Source of the DNA: a virus
Strand: one strand, 5' to 3'
Virus record (IMG/VR): IMGVR_UViG_3300025697_000003
Length of the DNA: 64,000 nt
Below the pieces are notes generated by a model that was given only the letters and a program-made list of their open reading frames with translations, ran no database searches and was not told the origin of the DNA. Each line of letters starts with the position of its first letter. Within the stretch, counting starts at the first letter, position 1. Of this stretch, positions 1-32,535 are shown in pieces. Made by a program: the position numbers and the translations under genes.

Positions 1-2742
1 TTGGCCATTGCCGGCGTTACTGATGAGGTAATGATGGGCTTTGTCGAAGAGACCTACGCTCTCATTGCAGCATTCGGGGCGGCAGAAGAAGGATCGGCTG
101 ATCAGGCGCAGATACTGGGAGAACTGGCGGGCAGATATAAGACAGCGGCTGGATGGATGGAGACATTTAAGAAGGCTGGGATTGAAGCAGACGCTGAATT
201 GGTCGACTTGATCGCGGCGTTTGAAGTATTCAATTTTGCCGTTGACGAGGGGACCGATAGTTTTATTGATGAAACCACAAAACTAATCGCTGCGTACAAA
301 CTTCTTGATGAAGGATCAGAAGAGCAGGCTGCGGCCCTCACAGAGTTGACGTCGCGTTATCAGACAACGGCACAGTGGACGGAGTTGCTTGCGTCGGTTG
401 GGAAAGAAGCTGACGAGGAATTAGTTGGTCTTATCGCTTCGCTGGAAGAACTTGGGATCAAGCTAAAAGACACGACGAAGGCGGTGGACCCATTTGATGT
501 AGCCACCTACAAGCTACTTACAACATACGACGAAGCCACAGATGGGTCTATCCTGCAAGCGGAGGCACTCTCGGCTTTGTCGGGGAGATACTCGACGGCG
601 ACCGGATGGTTAGAGCAATTTGCCGCTGTGGGAACTGTGGCAGACACGGTTCTGTTGGACTTGATCGCGGCGTTAGAAGCAATCGGGTTGACTGGAGAGG
701 CCGCGACGAAGGGGTTCGTCGACGAAACAAACGCACTAATTACAGCATTTGGGTTAGCAGACAAAGGATCAGCTAAACAGGCAGATATTCTTGACGACCT
801 TGCCTCTCGATACTCGACAGTAACTGGATGGATTGAGGCATTGAGTGCGGTTGGCATTGAAGCGAGTGAAGCTCTCACGCTACTCGTTGCTGCTCTGGAA
901 GAAGTTGGCCTCAAAGCAGTAGCAGCTGCTGAGAAGACGTTCGTTCAAACGACGTATGAGCTTATTGCTACGTATGATGCGGCGACAGAAGGATCAGTTG
1001 CTCAGGCAGAAGCCCTTCAGTCATTGGCTGGACGATACCAGACTGCGATTGGGTTGGAGGAGTTGCTTACTAGCAAAGGGATCGAGGCAGATGACGAACT
1101 CGTTTTGCTAATTAAAGACCTCGAGAAGTTCGCGGAAGCAGCAGAAGAAGCCGGGGTCGATCTCGTTAATGTTACATCAAAGATGGTAACTGGCGTTGGG
1201 CAGCTACTAAAAAAGTTTGGTGGAGAGGGAGCACAAGGCGCAGGTAGCATCCTGACATCATTAGGAGCATCTATTGGCTCTGTCGGACTAGCAGTGGCTG
1301 CTCCAAATCCTATGACGATAGGCAACGCGATCCTTGCCGTTGCCGACACAGTTGGAACAGCCTGGATGGAACTTGTTGTAAATCCAGCCGCCGACGCTGA
1401 AGAGGAACGTATCAAAACTGAAGAGGAAAGGCTCGCAGCAGAGCAGGAATTCACAGATAACTTGCTACACGCTGCCGATGCAGCTGCATCAGCATTATGG
1501 GGCCTTGTCGAGTCGGCAGAGTCAGTGGCCGAAATACAGAGCGGCCTTGCCCAACTCCAAGTAAACGTCATGAGCTCATTGCTGGCCTTCCTGTGGCCTC
1601 TGGCGGGCATCCTTGGGTACATCAACGAACTGTTCGTGATACAGGCAGATGTGATAGAGGATGAGGTTGAGGCAAGAGAGAAGATGCTGTCTAACCTTAA
1701 CGTACCGATTGGCTTCCCGATCAACAGGATCCGGTTCGCTGCGGGGACACCTGGCGAGCCTGTAACGTTCAACGAAGACGAGATAGGTGGCGGTGCGGAT
1801 GAGATAGTTGCTGAGATACTTACGTGGTGGGAAGAGGCACTTGAGCCATTTAGGGATCAGATCATGGAGATGATCCAGCCTATTGCCGACTTCAGGGACG
1901 CAATGCAGCAACTAGCAATCGACTTAATTCCTGCCATGCTGACGATCCTGGAACCTATCCTGGACACATTCGGATGGGCGCTTGGCGAGATTTCCACGTG
2001 GATGCAGGATGTATTCAAGCCAGATTTCGAGGAGTTCGCAGAGGGCTTTGCGACATTCTGGGAAGACAGGGTAGACCCATTCTGGAAAGAAGACATGTTC
2101 CCTCAACTAACAGAATGGTTTGACACACTGTACGGCTGGCTTGGCGACATCATCGGATTCTTCGGAGATGAAGGATGGGACTTCCTCACAGACGAGGGTG
2201 GTGTGTGGGATAAAGTTGTAGGATTTGTCGATTCCGTGTTCGATATGTTCTCAGAGTTCGGGCAATGGGTAGACGATAACTGGGAGACGATCGAGAATGT
2301 ACTCCTGAAACGTATTCAAGACGCTCTAGATGCTCTTGGGATAGATCTAGACGACTTTCTCCGCAGAGTAGAGAACTGGCTACTGGGCGGAACATGGGAG
2401 CAAGCCGACGAACCATCGTGGATTACTAAGTTCCTTACAGGACTAGGCGAGATGAGGGACGCGATCGTTGCTGTACCAGAACCGTTACGAGATATTGCAG
2501 GCGTACTGGAAGGGTTCGCAAACTGGTTAGGCATAGATTATGAATCGTCTGGAGCGATGTCTGTGCAACCTGTCGCTGCAGGTATGGGTGTGGCAGGCGG
2601 GATGGGATCTGCTGGCAAATCAGCAGTAACGATCAACGTCAACCTGTCTCAGGAACGACTCAGCCAAATCATGATCCGTAAAATGACTAGCCAGAATGTG
2701 AATGATCACGGCGTAGGATTTGCGCCAATCAGGGTGGGATAA
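1..2742 (+). CDS. tail tape measure protein (5' end outside window)
   Basis: 913-aa frame open from the window edge. It has five ~75-aa helical tandem repeats, a Gly/Ala hydrophobic core (GAQGAGSILTSLGASIGSVGLAVAAPNP) and a Trp/Asp-rich C-terminus. It lies directly upstream of the tail-tip genes. Confidence 0.8.
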   Translation: MAIAGVTDEVMMGFVEETYALIAAFGAAEEGSADQAQILGELAGRYKTAAGWMETFKKAGIEADAELVDLIAAFEVFNFAVDEGTDSFIDETTKLIAAYKLLDEGSEEQAAALTELTSRYQTTAQWTELLASVGKEADEELVGLIASLEELGIKLKDTTKAVDPFDVATYKLLTTYDEATDGSILQAEALSALSGRYSTATGWLEQFAAVGTVADTVLLDLIAALEAIGLTGEAATKGFVDETNALITAFGLADKGSAKQADILDDLASRYSTVTGWIEALSAVGIEASEALTLLVAALEEVGLKAVAAAEKTFVQTTYELIATYDAATEGSVAQAEALQSLAGRYQTAIGLEELLTSKGIEADDELVLLIKDLEKFAEAAEEAGVDLVNVTSKMVTGVGQLLKKFGGEGAQGAGSILTSLGASIGSVGLAVAAPNPMTIGNAILAVADTVGTAWMELVVNPAADAEEERIKTEEERLAAEQEFTDNLLHAADAAASALWGLVESAESVAEIQSGLAQLQVNVMSSLLAFLWPLAGILGYINELFVIQADVIEDEVEAREKMLSNLNVPIGFPINRIRFAAGTPGEPVTFNEDEIGGGADEIVAEILTWWEEALEPFRDQIMEMIQPIADFRDAMQQLAIDLIPAMLTILEPILDTFGWALGEISTWMQDVFKPDFEEFAEGFATFWEDRVDPFWKEDMFPQLTEWFDTLYGWLGDIIGFFGDEGWDFLTDEGGVWDKVVGFVDSVFDMFSEFGQWVDDNWETIENVLLKRIQDALDALGIDLDDFLRRVENWLLGGTWEQADEPSWITKFLTGLGEMRDAIVAVPEPLRDIAGVLEGFANWLGIDYESSGAMSVQPVAAGMGVAGGMGSAGKSAVTINVNLSQERLSQIMIRKMTSQNVNDHGVGFAPIRVG
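37..1155. repeat. five tandem ~225-bp (~75-aa) repeats inside the tape measure gene
   Basis: Repeated unit F[VI][DE]ET..LI.A......GS..QA..L..L..RY.T..GW.E....[AV]G.EAD.ELV.LIA.LE is seen five times in the translation. Confidence 0.8.
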
Positions 2743-4691
2743 TGGCCAGAACAATAGACAATGGGAATATCCTCTCAAAGATTTCTGGAGAGACAGTTAG
2801 GGTCTACGACGGCTCTGACTGGATTGATCTTGTTGATCCAGCAGGATCCTCGTTCCCTGGCTATTCCCGAGTGAAGGCCTACCAGTGGAGCTACAATCAG
2901 AGCAACGGTAAGTGGGTGGCCACGGTCACGTTTGCGAACTATGAGTATCTGAGGGATGCCGGCGAGAGCCTTGACCCAACTGACACGTCAGACTTCAATC
3001 CGTTGGACGTTCCTTTGCTGGGTGCTTACCACAAGTTTGAGATCTGGGTTGGCAAGTACAGCGCAGGAAATGTAGCTGGCACAGAAGCCATGGTATTCAG
3101 CGGGCGTATCGGACCTGACTCAATCCAACCAGATGAGGGCATTGAGGGCGAGGATTTCGTCGTTGCTCGAATCGTCGGAGTGACGCAGCCGTGGTTTGCG
3201 GACTACATCGACAAGATCGATCGAGGAAGACTCTACACTGACTGCTACCTATCTGGAATCTGGAATGCGACAACGACATTCGCTGTTGGCGATGTCGTTA
3301 CTCTGTCAGGAGTAGCGTATCAGTGCATCCTAGCGAGTACAAACAACGAACCTCCGAACATTACCTACTGGACTGTCTTCACTGGGACGAACAACATCTG
3401 CAATCAGATCTTGACCGACTTCGGGCATGAAGCGAATATCGTTGTTGCACCGTCACCAACTGGACTAGATCCGTTGACGTTCTACTGCGAGAACTACGAG
3501 ATTGGCGATATATCGGTAGGGGAGGCCATCCTTCGACAGGTCAGCGCGATCGGGTTCCTCCTCCAGGAGAAGTACAACGCGACACAGGCCAACTTCGTTC
3601 CTACCATCGTGGATCCAGATCGAGACAACGTGACTCCTGACATCGACCTTGAGGGAAACATCAACACGTCTAGGATTGTCTATTCTGAAGCTAACGTAAG
3701 GACGTTCTGCCGTGTTGTGTTCTACAACAGGGATGACGGCAGCTTCTCGTATGTAGACGCAGAGAACGATGCTGCAAGGCTCATCTACGGCATACCTGGC
3801 GCTGGTGGTACGAAGCTGCACAAGAGAATGCGTGTTGTCGAGAACGACAAGTCGTGGATTGACACAGAAGTCGAGGCCCAGAAGGAAGCGAATTATTGTG
3901 TGCAGGATGCAGGGACACCGCTCATCAAGAACTCTTTTGTCATTCCGTGGCTAGTCCTTGGAGTCGAGGGTGGAGATCTCGTAAGAATTGTAACGCCATC
4001 GAAGACAATGGACGTTGGCGTGTTGACCATTCAACACAACGTCGGTGAGGGCGACATGTTCGGGCACACCGTCATCACAGGGACACTAGCACGTCGCGTC
4101 GGCAACTACGAATACTGGTTCAATCGGTCGAGGGTAGACAACGCTTGGAAGCAGGACAGATACAACGAACTGATGCAAGGACCGATTCCGATGAAGCCAA
4201 GTAACGTAGTGGCCAAGTCGGTGTGGGGAAAAGATGTAGCAGGCTCTCCTGCGCCAGTAATCGATGTGTCATGGTTTGGTGCAAGAGATGGTAGAACGCG
4301 ATCTCACGTTCTTAGGTATCGATTACTTAGTCCACGAGATTCTGGTACTGCAACTGCTGGCAGCACAACAACTCTGACGGATGGCTCTAAATCATGGACG
4401 ACAAATGCCTACCGTAATGGCGGATATGTGTCCATGGCTGGGAATGTTACCTCAAGGAAGGGGACTGACAATCTACGGAGGATCCTTTCCAACACAGGTA
4501 CTGTGCTGACGTTTGAGAATGCGGTAGATGTTGCGCCGGCGAATACGGAGACATACGAGATCTATTGGGTAACAGGAGAGTGGCACGAAGTCACAGTAGG
4601 CAAGGAACAATTTGTTCAATTACCTGGACTCCCAGAAGGGAACGAATACATGATCGAAGTGGCGGCTGTACCAACAGTCAGCGGGACATAA
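2742..4691 (+). CDS. tail tip/baseplate protein with CBM5/12-like insert and C-terminal Fn3-like domain
   Basis: Start overlaps the TMP stop (TAATG). Motif WNATTTFAVGDVVTLSGVAYQCILASTNNEPPNITYW resembles chitin-binding type-3 modules. It sits right after the TMP. Confidence 0.6.
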   Translation: MARTIDNGNILSKISGETVRVYDGSDWIDLVDPAGSSFPGYSRVKAYQWSYNQSNGKWVATVTFANYEYLRDAGESLDPTDTSDFNPLDVPLLGAYHKFEIWVGKYSAGNVAGTEAMVFSGRIGPDSIQPDEGIEGEDFVVARIVGVTQPWFADYIDKIDRGRLYTDCYLSGIWNATTTFAVGDVVTLSGVAYQCILASTNNEPPNITYWTVFTGTNNICNQILTDFGHEANIVVAPSPTGLDPLTFYCENYEIGDISVGEAILRQVSAIGFLLQEKYNATQANFVPTIVDPDRDNVTPDIDLEGNINTSRIVYSEANVRTFCRVVFYNRDDGSFSYVDAENDAARLIYGIPGAGGTKLHKRMRVVENDKSWIDTEVEAQKEANYCVQDAGTPLIKNSFVIPWLVLGVEGGDLVRIVTPSKTMDVGVLTIQHNVGEGDMFGHTVITGTLARRVGNYEYWFNRSRVDNAWKQDRYNELMQGPIPMKPSNVVAKSVWGKDVAGSPAPVIDVSWFGARDGRTRSHVLRYRLLSPRDSGTATAGSTTTLTDGSKSWTTNAYRNGGYVSMAGNVTSRKGTDNLRRILSNTGTVLTFENAVDVAPANTETYEIYWVTGEWHEVTVGKEQFVQLPGLPEGNEYMIEVAAVPTVSGT

Positions 4692-4701
4692 GGAGGGCAC
4701 G

Positions 4702-5013
4702 ATGAGCACCGCGACATTCCATCTCAAACAGAACGATACAAAGCCATCCTTGTCTGCGAGTCTGACGCAAGATGGTTCAGTAGTCGATCTGACTGGGGCG
4801 ACTGTAAAGTTCCACATGGGCGATACAGTGGATTCAGCAGCAGTAGTGGCCGGCGCATTAACTGGGTCTGTTAGGTATGACTGGGATGCGGAGGACACAG
4901 TAACCGCAGGATCATTCCCTGGCGAGTTTGAGGTCACGTTCTCTGATGGGACGATAGAGACATTCCCGAATGACGGGTATCTGACAATCGAGATCCAATC
5001 GGAGTTGGCATGA
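4702..5013 (+). CDS. small Ig-like tail/baseplate protein (BppU-N/DUF2479-like by eye)
   Basis: AGGAGGG RBS. Pattern KQNDTKPSLSASLTQDGSVVDLTGATVKFHM is typical of baseplate upper protein N-domains. Confidence 0.5.
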   Translation: MSTATFHLKQNDTKPSLSASLTQDGSVVDLTGATVKFHMGDTVDSAAVVAGALTGSVRYDWDAEDTVTAGSFPGEFEVTFSDGTIETFPNDGYLTIEIQSELA

Positions 5014-5384
5014 GCAATAATCACATAACGATCAACAACTCGATTACAGAGGCGGGACGGACGGTAACTTCTCGCATTCCTCCGAATGCGCCATTAGATT
5101 TCGGCACGTTGGCTATCCTGTTCAACAACATGGTCCCACAGTCATCGGCGCCGAGCGATCCATCAGAGAAAGATGTGTATCTTGACGACGGTACGAATAC
5201 CGTGTCAGGGACATTGGGATTCAGACAATACGACGGCAGCGCGTGGGAAGATTTCGGATTGCAGACAGGAGGTGGCAGCAGCATTACTTCAACACCTGAA
5301 AGCGGACAATATCAGGTGACTGACATGAGGCTTGCGTCAGACTTCACATTGATTGTCGAGTACAACGATGTACCCGCAGCATAA
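5010..5384 (+). CDS. hypothetical protein, tail module
   Basis: ATGA overlap with the upstream stop. Co-directional ORF. Confidence 0.5.
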   Translation: MSNNHITINNSITEAGRTVTSRIPPNAPLDFGTLAILFNNMVPQSSAPSDPSEKDVYLDDGTNTVSGTLGFRQYDGSAWEDFGLQTGGGSSITSTPESGQYQVTDMRLASDFTLIVEYNDVPAA

Positions 5385-5390
5385 GGAGAA

Positions 5391-5840
5391 ATGATGATTC
5401 ATGAGACTGCAGACGTAGATCCTACTGCCACGATTGGCGAAGGGACGAATGTGTGGAACAACGCGCAAGTGCGTGAAGGCGCGAAGATTGGGAAGGATTG
5501 TGTCATTGGAACGGGAGCTTACATCGGGAAGGATGTTGTTGTTGGTGATCGATGCAAGATTGAGAACTACGCATGTCTGTTCCGTGGAGTCAGAGTTGGA
5601 GACGAGGTGTTCATTGGTCCGCATGTTTGCTTCACGAATGACAGGATTCCTCATGCAGATGGGTCAGCATGGGATTTAGCCGTTACGTTGGTAGCCAGCG
5701 GTGCAAGCATTGGTGCGAATGCAACGATCTTGCCTGGAGCTCGCATCGGAGTAAACGCCATGGTTGGCGCAGGAGCAGTCGTAACTAGAGATGTATTGGC
5801 GCACGAAACAGTTGTTGGAAATCCAGCGAGGGAAATATGA
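5391..5840 (+). CDS. hexapeptide-repeat (left-handed beta-helix) sugar N-acetyltransferase, WbpD/WlbB-like
   Basis: IHETADVDPTATIGEGTNVWNNAQVREGAKIGKDCVIG hexapeptide repeats. AAGGAG RBS. The start may be the second ATG at 5394. Confidence 0.8.
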   Translation: MMIHETADVDPTATIGEGTNVWNNAQVREGAKIGKDCVIGTGAYIGKDVVVGDRCKIENYACLFRGVRVGDEVFIGPHVCFTNDRIPHADGSAWDLAVTLVASGASIGANATILPGARIGVNAMVGAGAVVTRDVLAHETVVGNPAREI

Positions 5841-6886
5841 TCACAATAGCAAACCCTATCATTGGCGATCTTGAGAAAGCCGCGGTCATGGACGTGCTGA
5901 ACTCAGGGAATCTAGCTCAGGGTTCCAAGGTACGCGAATTCGAAGAGGCGTTTGCGAAGTACGTCAACGCTGAGTACGCAGTTGCCGTTTCTTCTGGGAC
6001 TGCTGCGCTCCATCTTGCATTGAGGGCGCATGGTGTTGGAGGTGGCGATAGCGTTGTGACGACGCCATTCAGCTTTATGTCGACAGCGAACGCGATCATT
6101 CACTGTAATGCGTACCCCGTATTCGGAGACATTTCAGAGGAATCGTTCAATCTGACGCCAGAAAGCGCAGAAGCCGCGATTAACCCCTCTACTCATGCTG
6201 TGATGCCGGTACACCTGTATGGCCTCTCTGCGGACATAGATGGATTTGAGGGCCTCTCTGCTCGATCAGGCGTGCCAATCATCGAGGATGCCTGCCAAGC
6301 TCACGGCGCGACGTACAAAGGCCAGATGATCGGGTCGATCAACACGACATGCTTCTCGTTCTATCCATCCAAGAACATGACAACTGGCGAAGGTGGAATG
6401 GTAACGACAAACGATCCTACGATTGCCGACAAGGTGAGGACATTGCGTAGCCATGGTGTCGTAGAAGATGTCATCGGGTTCAACTATCGGATGACGGACA
6501 TTCAGGCAGCGATTGGGTGTGTGCAGCTAGATTCTCTTGATGACTGGAATGCTATCCGAGGCCAGAATGCGCGACTGCTGACACACTTGCTCTCTGACTC
6601 AGTAATTTGTCCAAAGGATACAGAAGGGCATGTCTACCACCAGTACACGGTGAGGATCAAAGAGAACAGGGACGAGGTATTACTCAAACTCAACGAAGCT
6701 GGGATTGGCGCAAGGGTCTACTACGACACGCCGATCCATAAGATGTATCCATATTCTGTGGCAGAGTCGACGAGACCTACGGCAGAGATGGTGGCGAAGC
6801 AAGTCCTGTCTCTTCCGGTGCATCCAGGAGTTTCAGCAGAGGATATTGAACGAATTGCGGAGGTGTTGAAATGCGCGTTGGCGTGA
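5837..6886 (+). CDS. DegT/DnrJ/EryC1/StrS-family PLP-dependent sugar aminotransferase (WbpE-like)
   Basis: N-terminal PIIGDLEKAAVMDVLNSGNLAQGSKVREFEEAFAKY..AVAVSSGTAALHLAL and FYPSKNMTTGEGG (Lys-containing) motifs. ATGA coupling to the upstream gene. Confidence 0.85.
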   Translation: MITIANPIIGDLEKAAVMDVLNSGNLAQGSKVREFEEAFAKYVNAEYAVAVSSGTAALHLALRAHGVGGGDSVVTTPFSFMSTANAIIHCNAYPVFGDISEESFNLTPESAEAAINPSTHAVMPVHLYGLSADIDGFEGLSARSGVPIIEDACQAHGATYKGQMIGSINTTCFSFYPSKNMTTGEGGMVTTNDPTIADKVRTLRSHGVVEDVIGFNYRMTDIQAAIGCVQLDSLDDWNAIRGQNARLLTHLLSDSVICPKDTEGHVYHQYTVRIKENRDEVLLKLNEAGIGARVYYDTPIHKMYPYSVAESTRPTAEMVAKQVLSLPVHPGVSAEDIERIAEVLKCALA

Positions 6887-8076
6887 TTGGTCTAGGGAGT
6901 ATGGGAGCGAACCACGCACGGGTGCTTGATGAACTCGGTGTGCTTGCGGCGGTATGCGATTCTGACAAGTTGGCGCCATGTCGAACGTCTGTGAAGAGAT
7001 ACACGACCATTGAGGGGATGCTGAAGAATCAGAATCTAGACGCAGTTACGATTGCTGTTCCGACATCGTTGCATTGCATGGTTGGGAGTACGGTACTGAA
7101 AGCCGGCATACCTGCGCTGATAGAGAAGCCACTTGCATCTACAGTTGCCGAAGCACGCTTGCTTGTTGAGGTAGCGAAGGCTGCTGGAGTATTCCTGTCT
7201 GTTGGGCTGATCGAGAGGCACAACCCTGCTGTTATTGAACTGAAGAAACGGTGGGGACAGCTGGGCGACGTATCTCAGATGATCATCCGTAGGATGGGGC
7301 CCTTCCCTTCTCGGGTAGAGGATTCAGGAGTGATACTTGATCTATCTGTGCATGATTTCGATCTCATCCGATTTCTTACGGGATCTACGATAGAGTTTAT
7401 GGCTGGATTGTCGTCACGGTCAATTCACGCAACAAGGGAGGATGCAGTCTCGTGTGTAGGGATGACAAAGAACGGAATCCTTACAACCATAATGGAGAAC
7501 TGGACGACGCCTACGAAGATCAGAGACATAACTGTACATGGGGCTGAAGGCATGTTCCATGTGGACTTGTTGATGCAGGACATCACGTTCTATGCAAACA
7601 ACTACGGGCCTGCATCATGGGAAGCTGTAAGTATCTTCAGAGGCGTGTCTGAAGGGGATCGGACACAGTACAAGATAGATCGAAGAGAGCCGCTAAAACA
7701 AGAGATATCGGCCTTCCTGCAGTGCGTGGAAGACGGGACACAGGACGGAGGAACTCCAGGGATTGAAGGCGTGTTCGCGCTTCAGCTATCAGAGAAGCTC
7801 CAGGGGATGTGTGATGGTAACATGGCGTTGAAGAAAAAGATTGAGCCGAAACTGGGAGTGAAGGGTGGCGCGAAGAAAGAAGCTGCTCCGGTAGAGAAGC
7901 AATTGACGGCGAGCGAAAAGGTGAGAGCCTATCTCGTTGAGCACCAAACCTGTTTTGTGACAAGGAAGCGGTTGGCGGATGGTCCTAATAAAGGGAAGAT
8001 GCAAGCAAAGTATACCGAGCTCAAAGGTGAACAACTGGAAGAAGTAGTAAATTCGTTGGTGTCCCTGTGTCAGTAA
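6871..8076 (+). CDS. Gfo/Idh/MocA NAD-dependent sugar oxidoreductase (WbpB-like) with ~85-aa Lys-rich C-terminal extension
   Basis: MRVGVIGLGSMGANHARVL Rossmann start and an EKPLA motif. GGAGGTG RBS. The oxidoreductase fold seems complete by ~aa 315, and the frame continues to aa 401. Confidence 0.8.
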   Translation: MRVGVIGLGSMGANHARVLDELGVLAAVCDSDKLAPCRTSVKRYTTIEGMLKNQNLDAVTIAVPTSLHCMVGSTVLKAGIPALIEKPLASTVAEARLLVEVAKAAGVFLSVGLIERHNPAVIELKKRWGQLGDVSQMIIRRMGPFPSRVEDSGVILDLSVHDFDLIRFLTGSTIEFMAGLSSRSIHATREDAVSCVGMTKNGILTTIMENWTTPTKIRDITVHGAEGMFHVDLLMQDITFYANNYGPASWEAVSIFRGVSEGDRTQYKIDRREPLKQEISAFLQCVEDGTQDGGTPGIEGVFALQLSEKLQGMCDGNMALKKKIEPKLGVKGGAKKEAAPVEKQLTASEKVRAYLVEHQTCFVTRKRLADGPNKGKMQAKYTELKGEQLEEVVNSLVSLCQ

Positions 8077-8133
8077 AGGAAATCAAATCAACTCCTCAGT
8101 GCTCAACGACACAGAGAGGAAAAGGAGGAAATT

Positions 8134-8508
8134 ATGGCTCTAGCAAGTTTGACGATGCCGACCTCTGTTACAGTATCTGAGGCAGAGTCAACCGGGACTA
8201 GCTCAGGAGTGGCCGCATCTACGGCGTCTTCTTCGGCGTCTGCAGCGATCATTGACGCATCTGAGGCTTCATCTCAGGCGTCCGTGGCGATCATTGACGC
8301 ATCTGAGGCATCCTCGTTGGCATCATCGGCAGCGGCTGACGCATCTGATGCGAAGTCGACGGGTCTTGTTGACAGCTCGGCTGCTTCGGTTACGAAGTCG
8401 TTGGCGGTCTACAGCGATCCGGGCTCTGATGAGTATCCGGTCAAAGAGATTGTCATGAATGCTACACTAGATACCGTCGTTACTTACGATGATTCATCTA
8501 TCGCGTAG
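8134..8508 (+). CDS. Ser/Ala-rich repeat protein (fibre-stalk-like low complexity)
   Basis: AAGGAGG RBS. AAIIDASEASSQASVAIIDASEASSLASSAAADASDAKS repeats, with a 23-bp perfect direct repeat at 8245-8267 and 8287-8309. Confidence 0.5.
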   Translation: MALASLTMPTSVTVSEAESTGTSSGVAASTASSSASAAIIDASEASSQASVAIIDASEASSLASSAAADASDAKSTGLVDSSAASVTKSLAVYSDPGSDEYPVKEIVMNATLDTVVTYDDSSIA

Positions 8509-8516
8509 CGTAATCC

Positions 8517-8546
8517 AGGGGCGGTCTTCGGGCCGTCCCTACTTCT
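8517..8546 (+). terminator. stem-loop with UUCG tetraloop and weak U tract after the Ser/Ala-rich gene
   Basis: AGGGGCGGTC-TTCG-GGCCGTCCCT then ACTTCT. The 10-bp stem includes two G-U pairs. Confidence 0.45.
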
Positions 8547-8557
8547 AAGGAGAGAAC

Positions 8558-9610
8558 ATGAAAATTGCACACTGGAGCAGTTTTGCACCGAGTCGCTCTG
8601 GGCTCTACGAGGCCGCGAAAGACCTCGTTCTAGCTGAGAGGGCGGCGGGTATTGACGCACTGTTCATGAATATGAGCATAGAGGATATCGAGCAGCACAA
8701 GGCGAAGTGTCCAGGAGGCAGGATTGACGAGGCGAATCTTAATCCGAGTGATTGGGAAGCGGCAAAGGATGCGAAGATCTGGGTCATTCATCGTGGCATC
8801 CCTGCATCGATGCTCGAGGAGTCTAAGAAGCACTATTTGATCATGGCGATCCACGGTGCTCCAGAACACATGATGATGCACGACATCGAGAACAGCGGTA
8901 ACGTACAGAGCTTCAATTCGCACATCAACATGGTGAACAATTACGATCGGTCGGTAGCGTTGAATGAGCACGACTACAGGATATGGCAGATGTATGCACC
9001 TCCAGAGAAGCTAGTCCACATTGACGACTCGATTGACGTCACTCGCTTCTCTCCAGATGGATATGCGTGGGAGTTCACAGGCGAGCCATCGATCCTTCAT
9101 GCTGACGTATCACGAAATATCAAGCTGCCGTTCACGCTGTTCTGGGCGATGGGGAAGATCTACGAGAGCATCCCAGAGGCAAGGCTTCAGATGTATGGAC
9201 TGCCGTTTGCTGAGATCAACACATTCAGAAACATGATGGTCAGGGCACAGAACATTCATCTGTTGGGTACGTTGGAATCTGTGCAGATGATCACATCTGA
9301 TCTTCGACCGATGATGAGAGGGTCTGACATTGGAGTCAACCCGAATCTCAGTGGAGTACGCTCGCGTGTAACGATGGAGATGATGGCGTGTGGGCTCCCT
9401 GTAGTTGGTGCTGGCGAAGGCTACCCGATTCGAAGGTATCGCACCTACGACACGCATGGGCTTGCAGAGACGATCCTAGAGGCGTGGGAAGAGATTCAGA
9501 AGGATCCTACGGCAGCGCGTGAGCAAGCTCGAGCGTATGCAGTAGAACACTTTGACGTTAAGAACGCTGTAGAGACTGGATGGATCCCACTCTACGAGGA
9601 GGTAGGGTAA
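8558..9610 (+). CDS. GT-B fold glycosyltransferase (GT4/GT1-like)
   Basis: C-terminal SRVTMEMMACGLPVVGAGEG resembles the E-x7-E nucleotide-sugar binding region. TAAGGAGAG RBS. Confidence 0.65.
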   Translation: MKIAHWSSFAPSRSGLYEAAKDLVLAERAAGIDALFMNMSIEDIEQHKAKCPGGRIDEANLNPSDWEAAKDAKIWVIHRGIPASMLEESKKHYLIMAIHGAPEHMMMHDIENSGNVQSFNSHINMVNNYDRSVALNEHDYRIWQMYAPPEKLVHIDDSIDVTRFSPDGYAWEFTGEPSILHADVSRNIKLPFTLFWAMGKIYESIPEARLQMYGLPFAEINTFRNMMVRAQNIHLLGTLESVQMITSDLRPMMRGSDIGVNPNLSGVRSRVTMEMMACGLPVVGAGEGYPIRRYRTYDTHGLAETILEAWEEIQKDPTAAREQARAYAVEHFDVKNAVETGWIPLYEEVG

Positions 9611-11088
9611 TGGCACTACAAACGACGAAGCTAGTAGGTGACATAGAGTTTGGACCGTATTCGATGCTTGCCTCTGTTTCTGATGATACGCCTCTTGCGC
9701 TGGCGATCGCGGAACAAACGATAGTAGGAAGGATCACGGGCGGCAACATCGCAGCGTTGACCGTGGCTGAATTGCAAACGCTGGCCTTCTCTGCGAACTT
9801 GCCTGAGAACGTTACTATCCGGCTTGATCCAATCCTCAGTGCAGATACCAAGTGGACAGGGACAACTCGTGATGTGGTAGCTGGCACAACTGCGCTTGTT
9901 TATGGCTACTGCTACTACTGCGCGTCGACCGGCAAGTGGGAACTGACAAACGCTACCGCGATCGCCACTTCTCATGGAGAGGTCGGCATGTGTGTCATTG
10001 CCGCGGCAACTGACGCGACTGGTACGTTGTTGATGAATGGAATGATTCGGGCTGATGACGAATTTGATACATTCACTAAGGGCAGTGACATCTACCTGAG
10101 TGCTTCTACGGCTGGGAAACTGACAGCTACTGCGCCTACAGGGACCACGGACTTCGTAGTGAGGATCGTAGCTTCGGCACCAACGGCTGACAGCGTTTCT
10201 TTCAAGGGCGGCCACGCATACGCTGAACTCGGAGATACTGTGTTCGTTACAAAAGCAACTTATGGCGCACAATCAATTCTTGCTGCTGTGTTGAATGATA
10301 CACCAGTGGTTGTTACTGTTGCTGAACAAACGCTGGTGGGGCGGAAGACAGGCGGCGATGTAACAGCCTTAACCGCTGCCGAGACTAGCGCGATTGTTCA
10401 TTCGGTTGGGCTCGCTGCTGACTGGGACGTACTTGACAACAAGATCACAGCCCAAAACCTCACCGCCGATGCGCTGACTGCCGGGCGGGGTGTGTTCACA
10501 GGCACAGACGGGCTTTTGTCGGTTGACGGTGCTTTCATTTGGGACAATACGAATAAGCGGTTGGGGATTGGGGTAACACCGTTACATATTATTCACGTAT
10601 CATCGTCCATTGATACAGGCATTGGGATTGGCACCACCGACGCGGGGAGAGAAGCATATTTAGCGTTGTACTCAAACTCTGTGAGCATAGGAACGTTCGA
10701 GGCGTTTGGATCGACCTTTGCCGTTGCGGATTACCAATCAGCGGTATCTTTTACTGCCCAGGTTAATAACGATGGAAAGATATTTTTCACGACAAAGACC
10801 AGTGGGACTCCAACAGCAAGAATGGTGATTTTGAATAATGGCAACGTCGGCATCGGAACAACCGCCCCCGGCGCAAAGTGCCACGTAGACCAGTCAAGCA
10901 CCTCAGGCGCGATACCCGTGCTGACTTTGGATCAGGCGGATCTTAGCGAGGAGTTCATATCGTTCAAAACTACAGTCGGAGATGGCAATCCGATGGACGC
11001 TACTAATGCTGTCGGCTCAGCTTACGCTAGGTTAAGGATTGACGTAGACGGTGTTGGATACAAGTACATTCAAGTTTACGACGCATAG
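9610..11088 (+). CDS. tail fibre protein
   Basis: TAATG overlap start. Internal duplication (LALAIAEQTIVGRITGGNIAALTVAELQ / VVVTVAEQTLVGRKTGGDVTALTAAETS). NNGNVGIGTTAPGAKCHV motif is common in fibre proteins. Confidence 0.6.
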   Translation: MALQTTKLVGDIEFGPYSMLASVSDDTPLALAIAEQTIVGRITGGNIAALTVAELQTLAFSANLPENVTIRLDPILSADTKWTGTTRDVVAGTTALVYGYCYYCASTGKWELTNATAIATSHGEVGMCVIAAATDATGTLLMNGMIRADDEFDTFTKGSDIYLSASTAGKLTATAPTGTTDFVVRIVASAPTADSVSFKGGHAYAELGDTVFVTKATYGAQSILAAVLNDTPVVVTVAEQTLVGRKTGGDVTALTAAETSAIVHSVGLAADWDVLDNKITAQNLTADALTAGRGVFTGTDGLLSVDGAFIWDNTNKRLGIGVTPLHIIHVSSSIDTGIGIGTTDAGREAYLALYSNSVSIGTFEAFGSTFAVADYQSAVSFTAQVNNDGKIFFTTKTSGTPTARMVILNNGNVGIGTTAPGAKCHVDQSSTSGAIPVLTLDQADLSEEFISFKTTVGDGNPMDATNAVGSAYARLRIDVDGVGYKYIQVYDA

Positions 11089-11096
11089 GAGGGAAC

Positions 11097-11345
11097 ATGG
11101 CATTTGATCCAGTAGTTGCAAAAGCACCAGCAAGCATCGGCGACATCAGCGTAGTTCTAACGGACTACATCGACGAAGAGACGTCGACAGCAAAATACGA
11201 GGTGCAGGTGAAGGACGCAGACGGCGGTATGTTCGAGTTGAAGCAAGGCGATCTAGTACCAGAGTTGCCGCAAGTACACATCGATGCGATGTTGGCGCTG
11301 ATGGCATACGTTGAAGGGCGATCGCAGGAGTTCTTGCCAGCGTAG
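11097..11345 (+). CDS. hypothetical protein, tail module
   Basis: GGAGGG RBS. 82-aa ORF. Confidence 0.5.
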   Translation: MAFDPVVAKAPASIGDISVVLTDYIDEETSTAKYEVQVKDADGGMFELKQGDLVPELPQVHIDAMLALMAYVEGRSQEFLPA

Positions 11346-11373
11346 GATCGATTGTGGAGGAGGTGGAATCTAA

Positions 11374-11988
11374 ATGGCGACCGAGACGCTTAGGCCGAAT
11401 GCGGCGGGTGATGAGACAGCCATTGCCGATCAATATCCTGACTCAACAGCGCACTGGGATAAGGTGGATGAAGCAGTCGCGGATGACGATACTACTTATC
11501 TGCAAGATGTAGGTGGAACCTATGCCCGCGACTTTTACAATATACCAGATTCGGTAGGAAGCGGAACGATAAGTTCCATCAAAGTTTATGCTGACGTGAG
11601 ATGTACTGGCGCACCAGCGCAAGCCAGCGTAAAAATCGTCATCAAGTCTGGTACTGGAACAGGTGCGCCAGACACAGCCGATGAAGGCAGCGAATTGACT
11701 ATTACCACTAGCTATGTTCTCCGCTCAGAATCATGGGCCACGAATCCTGCCACCTCCGCTGCTTGGACTTGGGATGAAATAGACAAGCTGCAAATTGGTA
11801 TCTCTATGAGGAAAGCCTCAATAGTCCCTGAGGCAAGTCGGTGCACCCAAGTCTACGTCGAGGTGGATTATACGGCAGGTAGCGCAACCAGCATCAAGAC
11901 AGTCATGGGCGTACCAATCGCTGACATCAAGACAGTCAACGGGGTAGCAATCGCAGATGTGAAATCATTCATCGGAGTATCGACGTAG
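11374..11988 (+). CDS. hypothetical structural protein with C-terminal short repeats
   Basis: GGAGGAGGTGG RBS. C-terminal IKTVMGVPIADIKTVNGVAIADVKSFIGV repeats. Confidence 0.5.
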   Translation: MATETLRPNAAGDETAIADQYPDSTAHWDKVDEAVADDDTTYLQDVGGTYARDFYNIPDSVGSGTISSIKVYADVRCTGAPAQASVKIVIKSGTGTGAPDTADEGSELTITTSYVLRSESWATNPATSAAWTWDEIDKLQIGISMRKASIVPEASRCTQVYVEVDYTAGSATSIKTVMGVPIADIKTVNGVAIADVKSFIGVST

Positions 11989-12002
11989 GATAGGAGAAGA
12001 CA

Positions 12003-12311
12003 ATGGCTGACTACAGGAAAGTATTTGGTAGGATTGTTACTGATGCTGAAGGAGCGGTAGGCGGAGTTTCCGTAAATGTCTATCAGCCTGGCACAACGAC
12101 AGCGATCACTCTAAAGGCAAACAAGGCTGGGACAGAGGCCAAGGCTAATCCGTTTGATACTGACGCTAACGGTATCTGGGCATTCTTCACAGACACAGAT
12201 GCTCTTTCTGGAGTGGACTACGAAGTTGACATCGTGTTCTCTAAGAGTGGGCTAGACTTCTCGAATATGAACGTGATGTACGAGAACGTGACGGTTCCAG
12301 GCGGATTCTAG
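12003..12311 (+). CDS. hypothetical small beta-rich protein, tail module
   Basis: TAGGAGAAG RBS. 102-aa ORF. Confidence 0.5.
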   Translation: MADYRKVFGRIVTDAEGAVGGVSVNVYQPGTTTAITLKANKAGTEAKANPFDTDANGIWAFFTDTDALSGVDYEVDIVFSKSGLDFSNMNVMYENVTVPGGF

Positions 12312-12335
12312 GCCGCTTCATAAGGAGGAGTGCGA

Positions 12336-13913
12336 ATGTCATCTGCAGTAGCGACTCAAGGATTACCGCTCGGTGAAGGAGTTGGGATTGTCACACACCA
12401 CTCGGGATGGACTCAGGCTACGTTTGGAGAAGTACCAGAGAAGACTCTCGTTCCTAGTGCCCCTGTGATCGATTCTATGGCCGCTCCAGACCAGACGGCT
12501 GGCATTCTGGTACTAAGTATCACCCTGCCGACTACAGACACTGGTGGCAACGCCCTAGCGCAGTCTGAGATCGTTAAGATTCGTATGCACCACAGCACGA
12601 GTTCCGGTGTCGATACTGGCGACTCGTATGTTGACTTCCCTCCCGGCGTAACTATCCAATGGGGTCCAGGAGATGTTGTTGCCCACTACGCTGCTATCCG
12701 CGTCCAAGATACTCACGATCATTGGTCTGTACTCTCGAATGAGAAATCAGCTACAGCGAATGCGGGAACAGAGCCTGAGTACGATGGTCTCTGGGCTCAC
12801 CGGCTTGGGAAGGATTCTGTGTGGACAGAGGACTCTCCGACTACTGATGATGTTGCATGGTCGAACGTAACTCTCTACTGGAAGGATAACAAGTATGCGA
12901 TAACGGACGGCAACACTAACAAGACGTACATTTGGTGGGACCACAGCAGCACTACAACATTCCAGACATCGGATACGAAGCCGACTTTAACGTTTGAAGA
13001 CATCCTAGTGGCTACGACTGATGCAGGGATGCTGTACCTGACAATGTACTCCCCGATGGTGCTTGCTGACTTCATTCGTGCTGGAGTGCTTGAGTCTACG
13101 AACTGGACTACCACGGCTGGATCGTACTTTGATCTCGATGCAGGGACGATCAAGCTCGGGGGATCAGATGATCCTTCATTCGCAGTCGACGCAGCCGGCT
13201 TGATTACAGCAAAAGCAGGAACAGTTGGCGGATGGACACTCGCAGCGACGACCTTAACTGGCGGCGATCTAACGCTCGACTCTGGGAACACGAAGATCAT
13301 AGCTGGCACGGGTGATGATATTGTCATCATAGACGCAGCTGACGCTGATTATCGTCTAGTAATTGGAGATGCTGTATATGCAGACGCTCCATTCTCTGTA
13401 CAGAAGGATGGGAAGTTCTATCTCGGTGGAGTTGCTGGCAATTTGCAGTGGACTCCATCTCCAGCGGCTCTAATAGTTACGGCGATTTATGCCTCTGCCG
13501 CTACATCTGTGGAACGGATTACAATCGCTACTGCTGACCTAAAGGCAGTAGACGCCTCTAACAATACTCGTGCCAATTTCAGCAGCACTGATATCACGCT
13601 GTACGACGCTACTCCTACGCTGATTGCTTTTATCCCGACAACTTCAGGGGTTACTCACGCTACGAATCCATTCTTTGTACATGCCCAAGTAACTGTCGAC
13701 AACAAGTTGGTCGTTGGATCATCGGCCATTGACAATCCATCGCAAGCTCTGCACGTCACAGGGACAGGTCTCTTCACAAGCACAGTAGTCGTCGGAGACC
13801 ATGGCGAAAGCACGACCCCGAGCGTCGTCAACGTCCTCTTCTACACGGCTGGTAATATTCCAACTGCAAGTACGACTCCACGTGGTACGTTTGCTGTGCA
13901 GGTGCCCGCATGA
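12336..13913 (+). CDS. tail fibre / host-specificity protein
   Basis: AAGGAGGAG RBS sits 5 nt before ATG 12336 (the ORF track starts at GTG 12330). Fn3-like N-terminal part and a WSNVTLYWKDNKYAITDGNTNKTYIWWD motif. Confidence 0.6.
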   Translation: MSSAVATQGLPLGEGVGIVTHHSGWTQATFGEVPEKTLVPSAPVIDSMAAPDQTAGILVLSITLPTTDTGGNALAQSEIVKIRMHHSTSSGVDTGDSYVDFPPGVTIQWGPGDVVAHYAAIRVQDTHDHWSVLSNEKSATANAGTEPEYDGLWAHRLGKDSVWTEDSPTTDDVAWSNVTLYWKDNKYAITDGNTNKTYIWWDHSSTTTFQTSDTKPTLTFEDILVATTDAGMLYLTMYSPMVLADFIRAGVLESTNWTTTAGSYFDLDAGTIKLGGSDDPSFAVDAAGLITAKAGTVGGWTLAATTLTGGDLTLDSGNTKIIAGTGDDIVIIDAADADYRLVIGDAVYADAPFSVQKDGKFYLGGVAGNLQWTPSPAALIVTAIYASAATSVERITIATADLKAVDASNNTRANFSSTDITLYDATPTLIAFIPTTSGVTHATNPFFVHAQVTVDNKLVVGSSAIDNPSQALHVTGTGLFTSTVVVGDHGESTTPSVVNVLFYTAGNIPTASTTPRGTFAVQVPA

Positions 13914-17393: not shown

Positions 17394-18368
17394 ATGAACA
17401 TGAAACTGAAACGAGCAGTAACTATGATAGTGATCTTTGCGGTGACGCTCCTTACGGGGTGTACGCTGTTTACAGGGACCGATGGGATACTAACCTTAGA
17501 TGTCCCAGAATCCGGCTATCCTCCATTTGAAGCAACGCTCACTGCGGGTGGCGTACTCAATGGCACGTACACGTTCGAGGTTGAGGGGAGAACGTACACA
17601 CAGCCTCAGAACGTACTGACAGTCACGATCTACTCTCTGCCATGCGATGTGAAGGTAACGTGGATTGGTAGCGACATTCCACAGGAAGTCACCAAGACGA
17701 TAGGCCTTGAGAATGGCGGACCTTCCATCGGGCGCCCTGTACTCAATGCGATTACAAACCTATGGACAATTCATCCACGGTCTCGATACATTGTGACATT
17801 CCCTGATGCTCACGATCCACAAGGCGGGGATGTAACGCTGATCAATGCGACTGTCTTCCACACAGGGCAGCAATCTGAGAACACGGTGTTCTGCCCTCCA
17901 TACACAGGGATGCACCCTCCGAAGCCAGATGTCTACCATGTTAAGGACGGGAATGGAACGCTTGAAAATGCCTTCATGTTCTTCTCGATTTGGGACGGAG
18001 ACATTGATGTCAATATCAACGATTTCGATGAGTGGAAAGACACCACTGACTATGTTTACGGAGATACAGTCCAATATGGCGGAAAGGGATATAAATGTAT
18101 CTTGGCGCATGAGGCAAGCGCACTCCCAACTAGAGCAAAGTATTGGGCATTGATCGGGACAGTTATTTCCGGCACAGGGCTCCCATACTCTCCGCCAGAT
18201 CAAGGAGTACGTGGCTATCCTGGCGCTGGGACATGTGGCCTTCAATGGACTAAGGAGTTTATTTCTGCTGGAATGACGATCATTACGGCGACATTCGAGG
18301 ATGAGATGGGAGCAACGACTACTGAATCATGGTCGATCCCGACTATGGTGTATCCGGGGTGCTCATGA
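17394..18368 (+). CDS. lipoprotein with CBM5/12-like module
   Basis: Lipobox LLTGC after a hydrophobic signal. WKDTTDYVYGDTVQYGGKGYKCILAHEASALPTRAKYW motif. The start may be ATG 17400. Confidence 0.6.
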   Translation: MNMKLKRAVTMIVIFAVTLLTGCTLFTGTDGILTLDVPESGYPPFEATLTAGGVLNGTYTFEVEGRTYTQPQNVLTVTIYSLPCDVKVTWIGSDIPQEVTKTIGLENGGPSIGRPVLNAITNLWTIHPRSRYIVTFPDAHDPQGGDVTLINATVFHTGQQSENTVFCPPYTGMHPPKPDVYHVKDGNGTLENAFMFFSIWDGDIDVNINDFDEWKDTTDYVYGDTVQYGGKGYKCILAHEASALPTRAKYWALIGTVISGTGLPYSPPDQGVRGYPGAGTCGLQWTKEFISAGMTIITATFEDEMGATTTESWSIPTMVYPGCS

Positions 18369-30252: not shown

Positions 30253-30437
30253 TGGAAATGCAAATGCTGGATGCTGCAATCTATGAGGCTGAGAGGTTTC
30301 TGAAGAAGGCTAAGCGGTGTAAGAAGAGTCCGACCAAGACAGAATATGGATACGCTTACTGGGATTTCAAAGAGACTGGAGCCACTAAACGATCGAGCAT
30401 GGATCTATCTCGCGCACTGTCAGATCTTAGACGATGA
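30249..30437 (+). CDS. hypothetical protein
   Basis: ATGATG overlap. 62-aa ORF. Confidence 0.4.
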   Translation: MMEMQMLDAAIYEAERFLKKAKRCKKSPTKTEYGYAYWDFKETGATKRSSMDLSRALSDLRR

Positions 30438-30451
30438 AGATAATCGCCTTG

Positions 30452-30480
30452 GGAAGCGGGGGCAACGCACCCCCGCTTCC
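30452..30480. terminator. perfect 11-bp inverted repeat between convergent genes (bidirectional terminator candidate)
   Basis: GGAAGCGGGGG-caacgca-CCCCCGCTTCC. Confidence 0.55.
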
Positions 30481-30485
30481 ATCAA

Positions 30486-30890
30486 TTACCCAGACACTTG
30501 GTTCTCTGGATGCTGTTTGTTCCACTTCGCAACCTTTTTTCGCTGAACATCCCAAGCATTCAATGCCGACATCAATGCCTCACTAAGCGATTCAGTGTCA
30601 TACACAGTCATCGCATCTGTGACGATCGCCGCCATCCTCGCTGGGATGTATATCGTTGTACGTTGCGGGATGCCGCGGGGTATTGGAAGTGAAATGCCAA
30701 GTGCAGCATCGAGCTTCGCTTGTGTGCCTTTGTGCGGCGGGGCACTATGTCGCCCCTTCTCAAGGCTGGAGATCACGCACGGCTTGATACCTGCCAATCG
30801 CCCAGCATCTTCAAGCGACAATCCCATCTTTAGACGCGCATCCAAAATCATCTTGCCGACTGCCTTCTTGTCCCATGTCATCGCGGTCAT
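30486..30890 (-). CDS. XRE-family HTH transcriptional repressor
   Basis: LDARLKMGLSLEDAGRLAGIKPCVISSLEKGRHS. GGAGGA RBS. Confidence 0.75.
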   Translation of the reverse strand: MTAMTWDKKAVGKMILDARLKMGLSLEDAGRLAGIKPCVISSLEKGRHSAPPHKGTQAKLDAALGISLPIPRGIPQRTTIYIPARMAAIVTDAMTVYDTESLSEALMSALNAWDVQRKKVAKWNKQHPENQVSG

Positions 30891-30923
30891 TTGTGTCCTC
30901 CTAAAACACCGTATCTGTCTACG

Positions 30924-31920: not shown

Positions 31921-31929
31921 CAACCCTCC

Positions 31930-32511: not shown

Positions 32512-32535
32512 CTTAATCACCTCGATTGCATCATA

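Follow-up and report, generated by a model that had tools for sequence, protein, structure and literature searches.

A predicted amino-sugar pathway and a GT4-like glycosyltransferase linked to Ser/Ala-rich fibre genes in an environmental phage, a candidate for virion glycosylation

Enzymes, glycosyltransferase and fibre genes of the cassette

The virus record IMGVR_UViG_3300025697_000003 of IMG/VR provided a stretch of 64,000 nucleotides of phage DNA (the window, whose numbering is used throughout), and our analysis concerns a group of genes at positions 5391–9610. Here, three genes for enzymes of nucleotide-sugar metabolism are followed by the gene for a small Ser/Ala-rich protein, a glycosyltransferase (GT) gene and, directly downstream, the gene for a modular fibre protein, all on the plus strand. 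An original prediction had described three translationally coupled genes, coding for an acetyltransferase, an aminotransferase and an oxidoreductase that would together oxidise, aminate and acetylate a UDP-sugar, and a GT gene behind them. The open reading frames (ORFs) are present as described, the first two (5391–5840 and 5837–6886) overlapping by 4 nt (ATGA) and the second and third (5837–6886 and 6871–8076) by 16 nt, and profile searches against Pfam as well as matches to structures in the PDB agree with the three enzyme families and the proposed sequence of reactions. We favour, with about even confidence, the reading that these genes represent a self-contained virion glycosylation cassette, which would be expressed late together with the structural genes and would provide a phage-made sugar to be O-linked to the phage's own fibre proteins.

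The first gene (5391–5840, with a start at position 5394 according to the gene callers) codes for a left-handed beta-helix (LbH) N-acetyltransferase (Hexapep, 90.8 bits). Its top matches in the PDB were 4mzu (E=5.2e-35), 7s43 (5.9e-35), WlbB (3mqg; 1.7e-28) and QdtC (3fs8; 1.1e-21), all of which we take to be nucleotide-sugar 3-N-acetyltransferases acting on a 3-amino group. Judged by these matches, the protein falls into the WlbB/QdtC class of LbH enzymes for 3-amino sugars; its score against the NCBIfam profile for NeuD/PglB/VioB was 109.9 bits, under the cut-off of 160.8. The second gene (5837–6886) codes for a full-length pyridoxal phosphate (PLP)-dependent sugar aminotransferase of the DegT/DnrJ/EryC1 family (PF01041, 403.4 bits, E=1.3e-120). 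It contains the PLP-binding lysine K179 within the motif SFYPSKNM, aligned with the corresponding lysine of the top PDB match, as well as D151. Its PDB matches included QdtB (3.5e-62), WbpE (3nyu; 7.2e-60) and NtdA, and its sequence is compatible with either C3 or C4 regiospecificity, between which it does not allow a decision.

The third gene codes for an NAD-dependent sugar-nucleotide 3-dehydrogenase of the Gfo/Idh/MocA type, the catalytic part of which (6871–7815) matched the families GFO_IDH_MocA (PF01408) with 73 bits and the associated C-terminal domain (PF22725) with 45.8 bits. The motifs GLGSMG at residues 7–12 (GxGxxG), EKP at residues 85–87 and D157/H161 (D-x3-H) are conserved. The best NCBIfam match was NF040723, representing the archaeal UDP-N-acetylglucosamine (UDP-GlcNAc) 3-dehydrogenase (EC 1.1.1.374), with 226.6 bits (E=4.9e-67) at an equivalog cut-off of 450, and this match extended over the full length (residues 1–306 on positions 1–293 of the 302 of the profile). 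Among the solved structures, the best match was 7bvj (4.9e-23), which carries only the database label 'Oxidoreductase, NAD-binding' and which we take to be the UDP-GlcNAc 3-dehydrogenase GnnA, whereas WbpB (3o9z) was matched with only 1.2e-4. Many of the homologues have been named UDP-N-acetylglucosamine 3-dehydrogenase by JGI. We regard the protein as a predicted UDP-GlcNAc 3-dehydrogenase, which is closer to these enzymes than to WbpB. The superfamily originally assigned to it was correct, but the particular identity with WbpB was not, and the sequence comparisons argue against orthology to the WbpB/WlbA enzymes acting on UDP-N-acetylglucosaminuronic acid (UDP-GlcNAcA).

The remaining part of this gene (7816–8076) codes for a Lys-rich linker and a domain of about 60 aa, which is matched at E~7e-7 by ORFs of two related loci (7170–7358 in L007 and 10864–11115 in L010). 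A length of 401 aa is found for the dehydrogenase only in the window and in its two closest homologues, all others consisting of 303–382 aa. Because the C-terminal ~85 residues are represented by a separate ORF of 61–62 aa in the relatives, the gene in the window is the product of a gene fusion.

None of the window ORFs of at least 200 aa had a Pfam match to a C6-dehydrogenase (WbpA), a 2-epimerase (WbpI) or a nucleotidyltransferase, in accordance with the original statement that WbpA and WbpI are absent. The likeness to UDP-GlcNAc 3-dehydrogenases fits this absence and a product of the type of UDP-2,3-diacetamido-2,3-dideoxy-glucose (UDP-GlcNAc3NAc). Because none of these additional enzymes is present, the conversion of UDP-GlcNAc via a 3-keto intermediate and the 3-amino sugar UDP-GlcNAc3N to UDP-GlcNAc3NAc is the most economical reading of the gene set, and the predicted product stays as originally proposed. 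A pattern-based scan detected adjacent genes for the aminotransferase and the dehydrogenase on about 20 other contigs of IMG/VR (L034–L055), several of which are 100–194 kb long. The LbH acetyltransferase is also encoded on six of them (L034, L039, L044, L047, L053 and L054), which represent four distinct arrangements. The combination, which had been considered unusual for a phage, is indeed rare among viruses, but it is not unique.

The GT gene (8558–9610) follows at the distance of 0.5 kb given in the original prediction, but the interval is not a spacer, since it holds the conserved gene 8134–8508. The GT matched the family Glyco_trans_1_4 (PF13692) with 28.7 bits, which is barely above the cut-off of 27, and this assignment was secured by a confident AlphaFold2 model. 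While an earlier model built on an alignment of 10 sequences was unusable with a predicted local distance difference test (pLDDT) score of 49, the model built on 65 sequences reached a pLDDT of 93.5 and a predicted template-modelling (pTM) score of 0.92. A Foldseek search of the PDB with this model matched BshA, MshA, HepE and GlgM at a probability of 1.00 and template-modelling (TM) scores of 0.70–0.75, and the wider set of matches at TM scores of 0.65–0.75 additionally contained a mycobacterial mannosyltransferase, PglA, PimA and GtfA. The model points to a GT4-like GT-B fold of the retaining type with two Rossmann-like domains, in agreement with the nucleotide-sugar-binding GT-B fold expected from the start. 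The conserved residues G15, H99-G100, R186, K189, R270, E274 and G279 fit the donor site of GT4 enzymes, and R186, K189 and E274 of this site are invariant or nearly so. A word-indexed search among 5.8 billion proteins yielded only 11 relatives and a full profile search among 1.84 billion proteins yielded 334 representatives; the family is small and was seen only in phage-like contexts. Longer members are fused to S-adenosylmethionine (SAM)-dependent methyltransferases, FkbM domains, a GT11 domain or a second GT1-type domain, and two representatives (P0136 and P0143) are interrupted by inteins (Pfam Intein_splicing).

The gene between the dehydrogenase and GT genes (8134–8508) carries a 42-nt tandem repeat at 8214–8309 and codes for a Ser/Ala-rich repeat protein of 124 aa, 54% of which are Ser, Thr or Ala. 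The C-terminal ~35 aa are conserved, and the C-terminus is 87% identical in the relatives. We propose this protein either as an acceptor of O-glycosylation, which we consider likely, or as a fibre subunit. A GC-rich hairpin with a UUCG tetraloop (8517–8540; −19.7 kcal/mol, z=−2.2) is located between its stop codon and the ribosome-binding site of the GT gene, and both stem and loop are kept at the equivalent intergenic position in the related loci L007, L010, L013 and L015. The hairpin may set different expression levels of the two genes or stabilise the mRNA, and one may speculate that such an arrangement would suit an abundant structural protein encoded ahead of an enzyme. A role as terminator after position 8508 was rejected because there is no T-run, so a consensus scan gives no terminator call.

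The modular fibre protein of 492 aa encoded behind the GT gene (9610–11088) has homologues with Mtd_N, collagen, CBM5_12, Peptidase_S74 and pectate-lyase modules and represents a second candidate acceptor. Copies of the phage that are otherwise near-identical differ in the length of this protein (492, 508 or 727 aa), as seen by comparing 12740–15841 of L001 with 9610–11088 of the window, and one of the length variants has a gene for an IS200-type Y1 transposase just downstream. This suggests a swapping of receptor-binding proteins inside one phage population.

Linkage of the glycosyltransferase to Ser/Ala-rich proteins

The related loci L007–L015 contain the same genes in the same order, starting with the acetyltransferase (60% identity), the aminotransferase (61–62%) and the dehydrogenase (47–49%), which are followed by two small ORFs, the Ser/Ala-rich protein, the GT (75–76%) and a protein with the N-terminal domain of the 9610–11088 type, this domain being found after the GT in L010, L013 and L015. 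The GT is the most conserved member of the cassette, at 75–76% identity versus 47–62% for the enzymes. In these relatives the cassette does not follow the tape-measure gene, but is placed after early genes (RNase_T and, in L010, a DCD-like gene) and just upstream of the portal gene. The original prediction had stressed that the cluster is embedded in a tail-fibre module, and this is correct for the window with its tape-measure, BppU_N-like and fibre genes. Because of the different genome position in the relatives, however, this location is not conserved, while the linkage of the pathway, the Ser/Ala-rich protein, the GT and the fibre protein is.

More distant GTs of 34–37% identity are present in four lineages, consisting of L016–L020 (with an HK97-type capsid and a gp6-like connector), L021, L022 and L023–L027 (with a P22-type portal). 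In all four, Ser/Ala-rich proteins are encoded both before and after the GT. The ORF immediately behind the GT starts with a Ser/Ala-rich repeat of the pattern 'F-[DNK]-P ... SDAASxAL ... SKIxAxSxAW', and a hidden Markov model (HMM) of this segment also detects the second such protein directly before the GT at the same loci. When we applied two motif HMMs to the 2606 ORFs from all loci, every significant match adjoined a GT, and in the same set an HMM of the GT-upstream proteins from the distant loci matched the 8134–8508 product of the window at E=9e-9. The fibre protein of the window is connected to this group as well, since residues 80–217 of the 9610–11088 product align with the C-terminal half of the Ser/Ala-rich protein that L021 encodes behind its GT. 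This fusion of a Ser/Ala-rich segment to a domain homologous to the 9610–11088 product ties the two window proteins together.

The downstream partners in L023–L027 have a C1q-like C-terminal domain, and a collagen-repeat fibre is encoded behind them; the partner in L024 matches a tail-collar-fibre PHROG and precedes a protein with Mtd_N and collagen modules. The GT gene of L024 is located between the capsid gene and these C1q/collagen fibre genes, and that of L017 between capsid and head-tail connector genes, so the GT is encoded among virion structural genes in the window, L017 and L024. Two adjacent genes of L017 (5040–6263 and 6277–7302, coding for 407 and 341 aa) both match the HK97-type Phage_capsid family. 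Homologues of two further small proteins encoded downstream of the fibre gene in the window (11374–12311, plus strand) travel with the GT in other phages: a homologue of the first (11374–11988, 204 aa) is encoded just after the GT in L013 and L014, and one of the second (12003–12311, 102 aa) 1.4–1.7 kb upstream of the GT in L017–L020.

At about 27% GT identity, the association is for the most part retained. In L028, a Ser/Thr-rich repeat protein is encoded upstream and an ORF resembling short-chain dehydrogenases/reductases (SDR) is found downstream, as judged by eye from the translation. Methyltransferases are added in L029 and L031: L029 contains two of them together with another GT and an S-rich 'SFNP' ORF, and L031 has a Ser-rich repeat protein two genes upstream. 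This survey comprises a small sample of about nine GT lineages. A search of IMG/VR with an alignment of the Ser/Ala-rich proteins recovered only contigs already in our set and yielded neither a counter-example nor new support.

The same neighbourhoods bear on the question of whether the three enzymes supply the donor sugar of the GT. The GT may glycosylate virion proteins with an ordinary nucleotide sugar of the host, the three enzymes serving another purpose or making a different 3-acetamido sugar, e.g. UDP-Glc3NAc from UDP-glucose; in a weaker form, the GT would make an oligosaccharide, free or linked to a lipid, that has nothing to do with the fibres encoded beside it. The pair of Ser/Ala-rich protein and GT occurs without the three enzymes in L016–L027, and the GT family is therefore not dependent on the pathway. 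Moreover, the enzymes score under the equivalog cut-offs, NtdA is among the PDB matches of the aminotransferase, and the C3 oxidation of glucose-type substrates, for example in the kanosamine pathway, is also catalysed by Gfo/Idh/MocA enzymes. In the clade of the window, however, the three enzymes and the GT always occur together and in the same order, across about 50% divergence and despite the changed genome position, and this strict co-inheritance suggests a donor-supply relationship. Other members of the family are found near different sugar-tailoring genes (DegT, the SDR-like ORF, methyltransferases), suggesting that the donor supply is specific to each GT. Taking both sides together, we consider a GT uncoupled from the pathway unlikely.

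Proposed virion glycosylation and competing roles of the cassette

The window starts with the C-terminal part of a tape-measure protein (1–2742; phrog_167), the full gene of which codes for 1679 aa with PF10145 on contigs of the same phage and marks the start of the distal-tail region. It is followed by three genes of the distal-tail or baseplate type (2742–5384), coding for proteins of 649 aa with CBM_5_12, of 103 aa with likeness to BppU_N (4702–5013) and of 124 aa, as assigned by Pfam and a weak match to a tail-fibre PHROG. All of these are on the plus strand. Elsewhere, the window encodes RecT, an exonuclease, a helicase loader, DnaN, an integrase-family protein, a dCTP-deaminase-like protein, large terminase, portal, protease and major capsid protein. 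Judging from these gene contents, it represents most of a phage genome of ~69.5 kb, a size taken from the longest contig, with structural genes of the long-tailed, siphovirus-like type, the ~5.5 kb outside the window holding tail genes according to contigs of the same phage, which recurs on more than 20 metagenomic contigs. A megablast search of GenBank phages with positions 5000–11100 gave zero matches, and tblastn of the dehydrogenase against GenBank phages gave only matches of at most 37% identity, each covering less than 80% of the query. A pattern scan of 185,579 bacterial and archaeal species, each represented by one genome, detected neither a close relative of the GT nor one of the portal protein, and the host search yielded no tRNA genes.

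Several further features of the genome stand apart from the cassette. CBM_5_12 modules, which bind chitin or other carbohydrates, occur in three proteins, encoded at 2742–4691 after the tape-measure gene, at 17394–18368 and, with a weak match, at 61357–61977 just after the major capsid gene. Three HNH-type endonuclease genes are present (26668–27720, 47014–47547 and 51762–52361), one of which (NUMOD4 + HNH_3) overlaps the large terminase gene at its start. A protein of 295 aa (36371–37258) shows a weak Pfam match to Proteasome subunits (30.4 bits, residues 49–95), which is unusual in a phage.

The cassette is on the same strand as the tail genes and contiguous with them, and its GC content is flat (0.51–0.52). 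No sigma-70-like promoter was found on the plus strand within positions 1–12822. We rejected an interpretation as a moron or recent acquisition because of the flat GC content, the lack of a promoter-like site of its own and the conservation of the cassette across about 50% divergence.

These data also bear on whether the sugar is destined for the host. In that case, the 3-acetamido sugar would be added to an envelope glycan (O-antigen, teichoic acid, S-layer or capsule) and block superinfection or change the serotype, as in lysogenic conversion. The usual products of GT4 enzymes are glycans of the cell envelope, the top structural neighbours of the GT include PglA, WaaG, PimA and HepE, and 2,3-diacetamido sugars are classic components of O-antigens. 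An integrase-family gene on the minus strand (31930–32520) additionally implies that the phage may be temperate. We nevertheless regard this role as quite improbable. The cassette belongs to the late structural operon, where it neither has its own promoter-like site nor deviates in GC content, and it is not placed beside the lysogeny region. A crude hydropathy test detected no convincing transmembrane segment in the module proteins (maxima over 19 residues of 1.69 for the enzymes and the GT and of 1.84 for any gene within 2742–15946). By Pfam, there is no gene for a flippase, a GtrA/B-type protein or a polymerase, so no GtrABC-type system is apparent. The scan of bacterial and archaeal genomes mentioned above detected no close relative of the GT, and host remodelling leaves the conserved flanking genes for Ser/Ala-rich fibres unexplained. 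The integrase-family gene is part of a minus-strand block (~30400–36700) with a GC content of up to 0.565 versus ~0.51 elsewhere, which encodes the integrase-family protein of 196 aa, a helix-turn-helix protein and a homologue of the DnaN beta-clamp and could be a lysogeny or foreign module.

Alternatively, the GT may transfer the amino sugar made by the phage to a modified base of the phage DNA, allowing evasion of restriction. Phage DNA GTs include GT-B enzymes related to GTs for lipopolysaccharide and teichoic acid, and some of their clusters are located near structural genes (Pyle et al., bioRxiv 10.1101/2023.12.21.572611), which sets a precedent for such a function. Structural matches in BFVD include a GT of Bacillus phage SP-15 and a cyanophage 'DNA alpha-GT', the cassette follows early genes in the relatives, and a dCTP-deaminase-like protein and a weakly ThyX-like one are encoded at 40011–41104. 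The latter is short (25.6 bits), and the two are translationally coupled. However, intact pathways for DNA hypermodification are commonly clustered, most of the characterised ones with a ThyA-like hydroxymethylase or 5mYOX (Pyle et al., bioRxiv 10.1101/2023.12.21.572611), whereas the ThyX-like and dCTP-deaminase-like proteins are encoded 30 kb away from the cassette, and no enzyme for the formation of 5hmC or 5hmU, whether a ThyA-type hydroxymethylase, cytosine methyltransferase or TET/5mYOX, was detected by Pfam in window ORFs of at least 200 aa. The part of the genome outside the window apparently contains tail genes. The alpha- and beta-glucosyltransferases of T4 are absent among the 50 PDB matches listed for the GT model, the fusion partners of the GT family are methyltransferases of the sugar type and further GTs, and the conserved neighbours of the GT are fibre proteins. 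A function in DNA modification appears very improbable to us. Out of the three roles originally offered, i.e. glycosylation of virion proteins, remodelling of the host surface and DNA glycosylation, the comparative data favour the first.

For the glycosylation of virion proteins, we propose the following sequence of reactions. As expected from their families, the Gfo/Idh/MocA enzyme would oxidise UDP-GlcNAc of the host at C3, the DegT enzyme would transaminate the 3-keto intermediate to UDP-GlcNAc3N, and the LbH enzyme would N-acetylate the latter to UDP-2,3-diacetamido-2,3-dideoxy-glucose or a close 3-acetamido analogue. The conserved gene linkage suggests that the GT would then move the sugar onto the serine-rich repeats of the flanking fibre proteins, 8134–8508 and/or 9610–11088, so that the virion would display a rare glycan of a bacterial type.

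Several observations weigh against this proposal. Adjacency of genes is no proof of an enzyme-substrate relation, and one of the sampled lineages (L030) breaks the link, its GT gene being placed in an early-gene context with no protein of the Ser/Ala type nearby. Ser/Ala-rich repeats of 14 residues are also typical of unglycosylated coiled-coil fibre shafts. Of the active-site features singled out beforehand, the PLP lysine and the NAD-binding GxGxxG motif are in place, but the EX7E motif of the GT is only half present: E274 is nearly invariant, and the first Glu is replaced by G266, with R270 nearly invariant instead. Because all three enzymes score below the NCBIfam equivalog cut-offs, their substrate is not fixed and may be UDP-GlcNAc, UDP-Glc or a dTDP-sugar. 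The phage is known from metagenomes only. Finally, DNA can be the substrate of GT4-like GTs from phages (Pyle et al., bioRxiv 10.1101/2023.12.21.572611).

Known systems and implications for phage biology

The same three enzyme families, catalysing C3 oxidation, transamination and N-acetylation, participate in the synthesis of UDP-2,3-diacetamido-2,3-dideoxy-mannuronic acid (UDP-ManNAc3NAcA) as WbpB/WbpE/WbpD in Pseudomonas aeruginosa and WlbA/WlbC/WlbB in Bordetella, and WbpE and WlbB are clear homologues of the window proteins. In contrast to these systems, the window lacks WbpA and WbpI, and its dehydrogenase is only remotely similar to WbpB. Therefore, the substrate is probably UDP-GlcNAc rather than UDP-GlcNAcA and the product a neutral sugar of gluco configuration instead of a mannuronic acid. 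The routes via UDP-GlcNAc 3-dehydrogenases, represented by the archaeal MMP0352/0351/0350 set and by bacterial GnnA/GnnB for the GlcN3N of lipid A, are the closer model, and the gene order of acetyltransferase, aminotransferase and dehydrogenase matches that of the methanococcal operon. The window set differs from these by being phage-encoded and coupled to GT and fibre genes, and by a dehydrogenase with an additional fused C-terminal domain and a score well below the cut-off of the archaeal profile.

Glycosylation of virions by phage-encoded GTs is itself already known, and the case of the window would be a variation on it. Most demonstrations of glycosylated proteins in phage particles have so far come from mycobacteriophages. 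According to a summary of the work of Freeman et al. 2023 (Cell Host Microbe) in PMC12619734, their virions are glycosylated at the C-termini of capsid and tail-tube proteins by GTs encoded by the phages. The window shares with them a phage-encoded GT in or near the structural genes. It differs in its partners, which are dedicated Ser/Ala-rich fibre proteins, in its own three-step amino-sugar pathway and in its host and phage lineage, which are unrelated and uncultivated.

A GT4-like GT-B gene beside a gene for a Ser-rich repeat protein is also reminiscent of the GtfA/GtfB system for glycosylation of serine-rich-repeat adhesins in Gram-positive bacteria, GtfA being among the structural matches of the GT. 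However, the sequence identity to GtfA is only ~12%, neither a GtfB-like partner nor an accessory Sec system is present, and the putative acceptors are virion components and not cell-wall adhesins. The downstream partners in L023–L027, with a C1q-like end and a following collagen-repeat fibre, resemble in turn the collagen/C1q exosporium glycoproteins of the BclA type. Both similarities should be read as analogies and not as homology of the systems. Virus-encoded amino-sugar pathways are known from giant viruses (Mimivirus, chloroviruses), where GTs decorate surface fibrils; the window differs from these in representing a tailed phage of ~70 kb, and also in the sugar and in the family of the GT.

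Looking beyond the phage of the window, we tentatively suggest a system shared across phage lineages, to which we assign a somewhat lower probability than an even one: a dedicated GT4 subfamily would O-glycosylate the flanking Ser/Ala-rich fibres, and each phage would bring its own toolkit for the donor sugar. With the same reservation, these toolkits might comprise the full UDP-GlcNAc3NAc pathway in the window and DegT, SDR-like, methyltransferase or extra GT genes elsewhere. In the literature searched, we found no description of this GT subfamily, of its pairing with Ser/Ala-rich fibres across unrelated types of structural modules or of its coupling, in a phage of ~70 kb, to a complete 3-acetamido-sugar pathway.

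If the proposal is correct, virion glycosylation would reach unrelated environmental phages with structural modules of the HK97 and P22 types and would have a defined acceptor family in the Ser/Ala-rich fibres, and a phage of ~70 kb would bring along a complete three-step amino-sugar pathway as donor supply. A compact set of four to five genes by which a defined protein scaffold would be decorated with a rare diacetamido sugar could also serve glycoengineering. The virions would show rare glycans of a bacterial type for adhesion, mimicry or protection, and such glycan-coated fibres would bear on host recognition by the phages, their stability in the environment and their recognition by immune systems.

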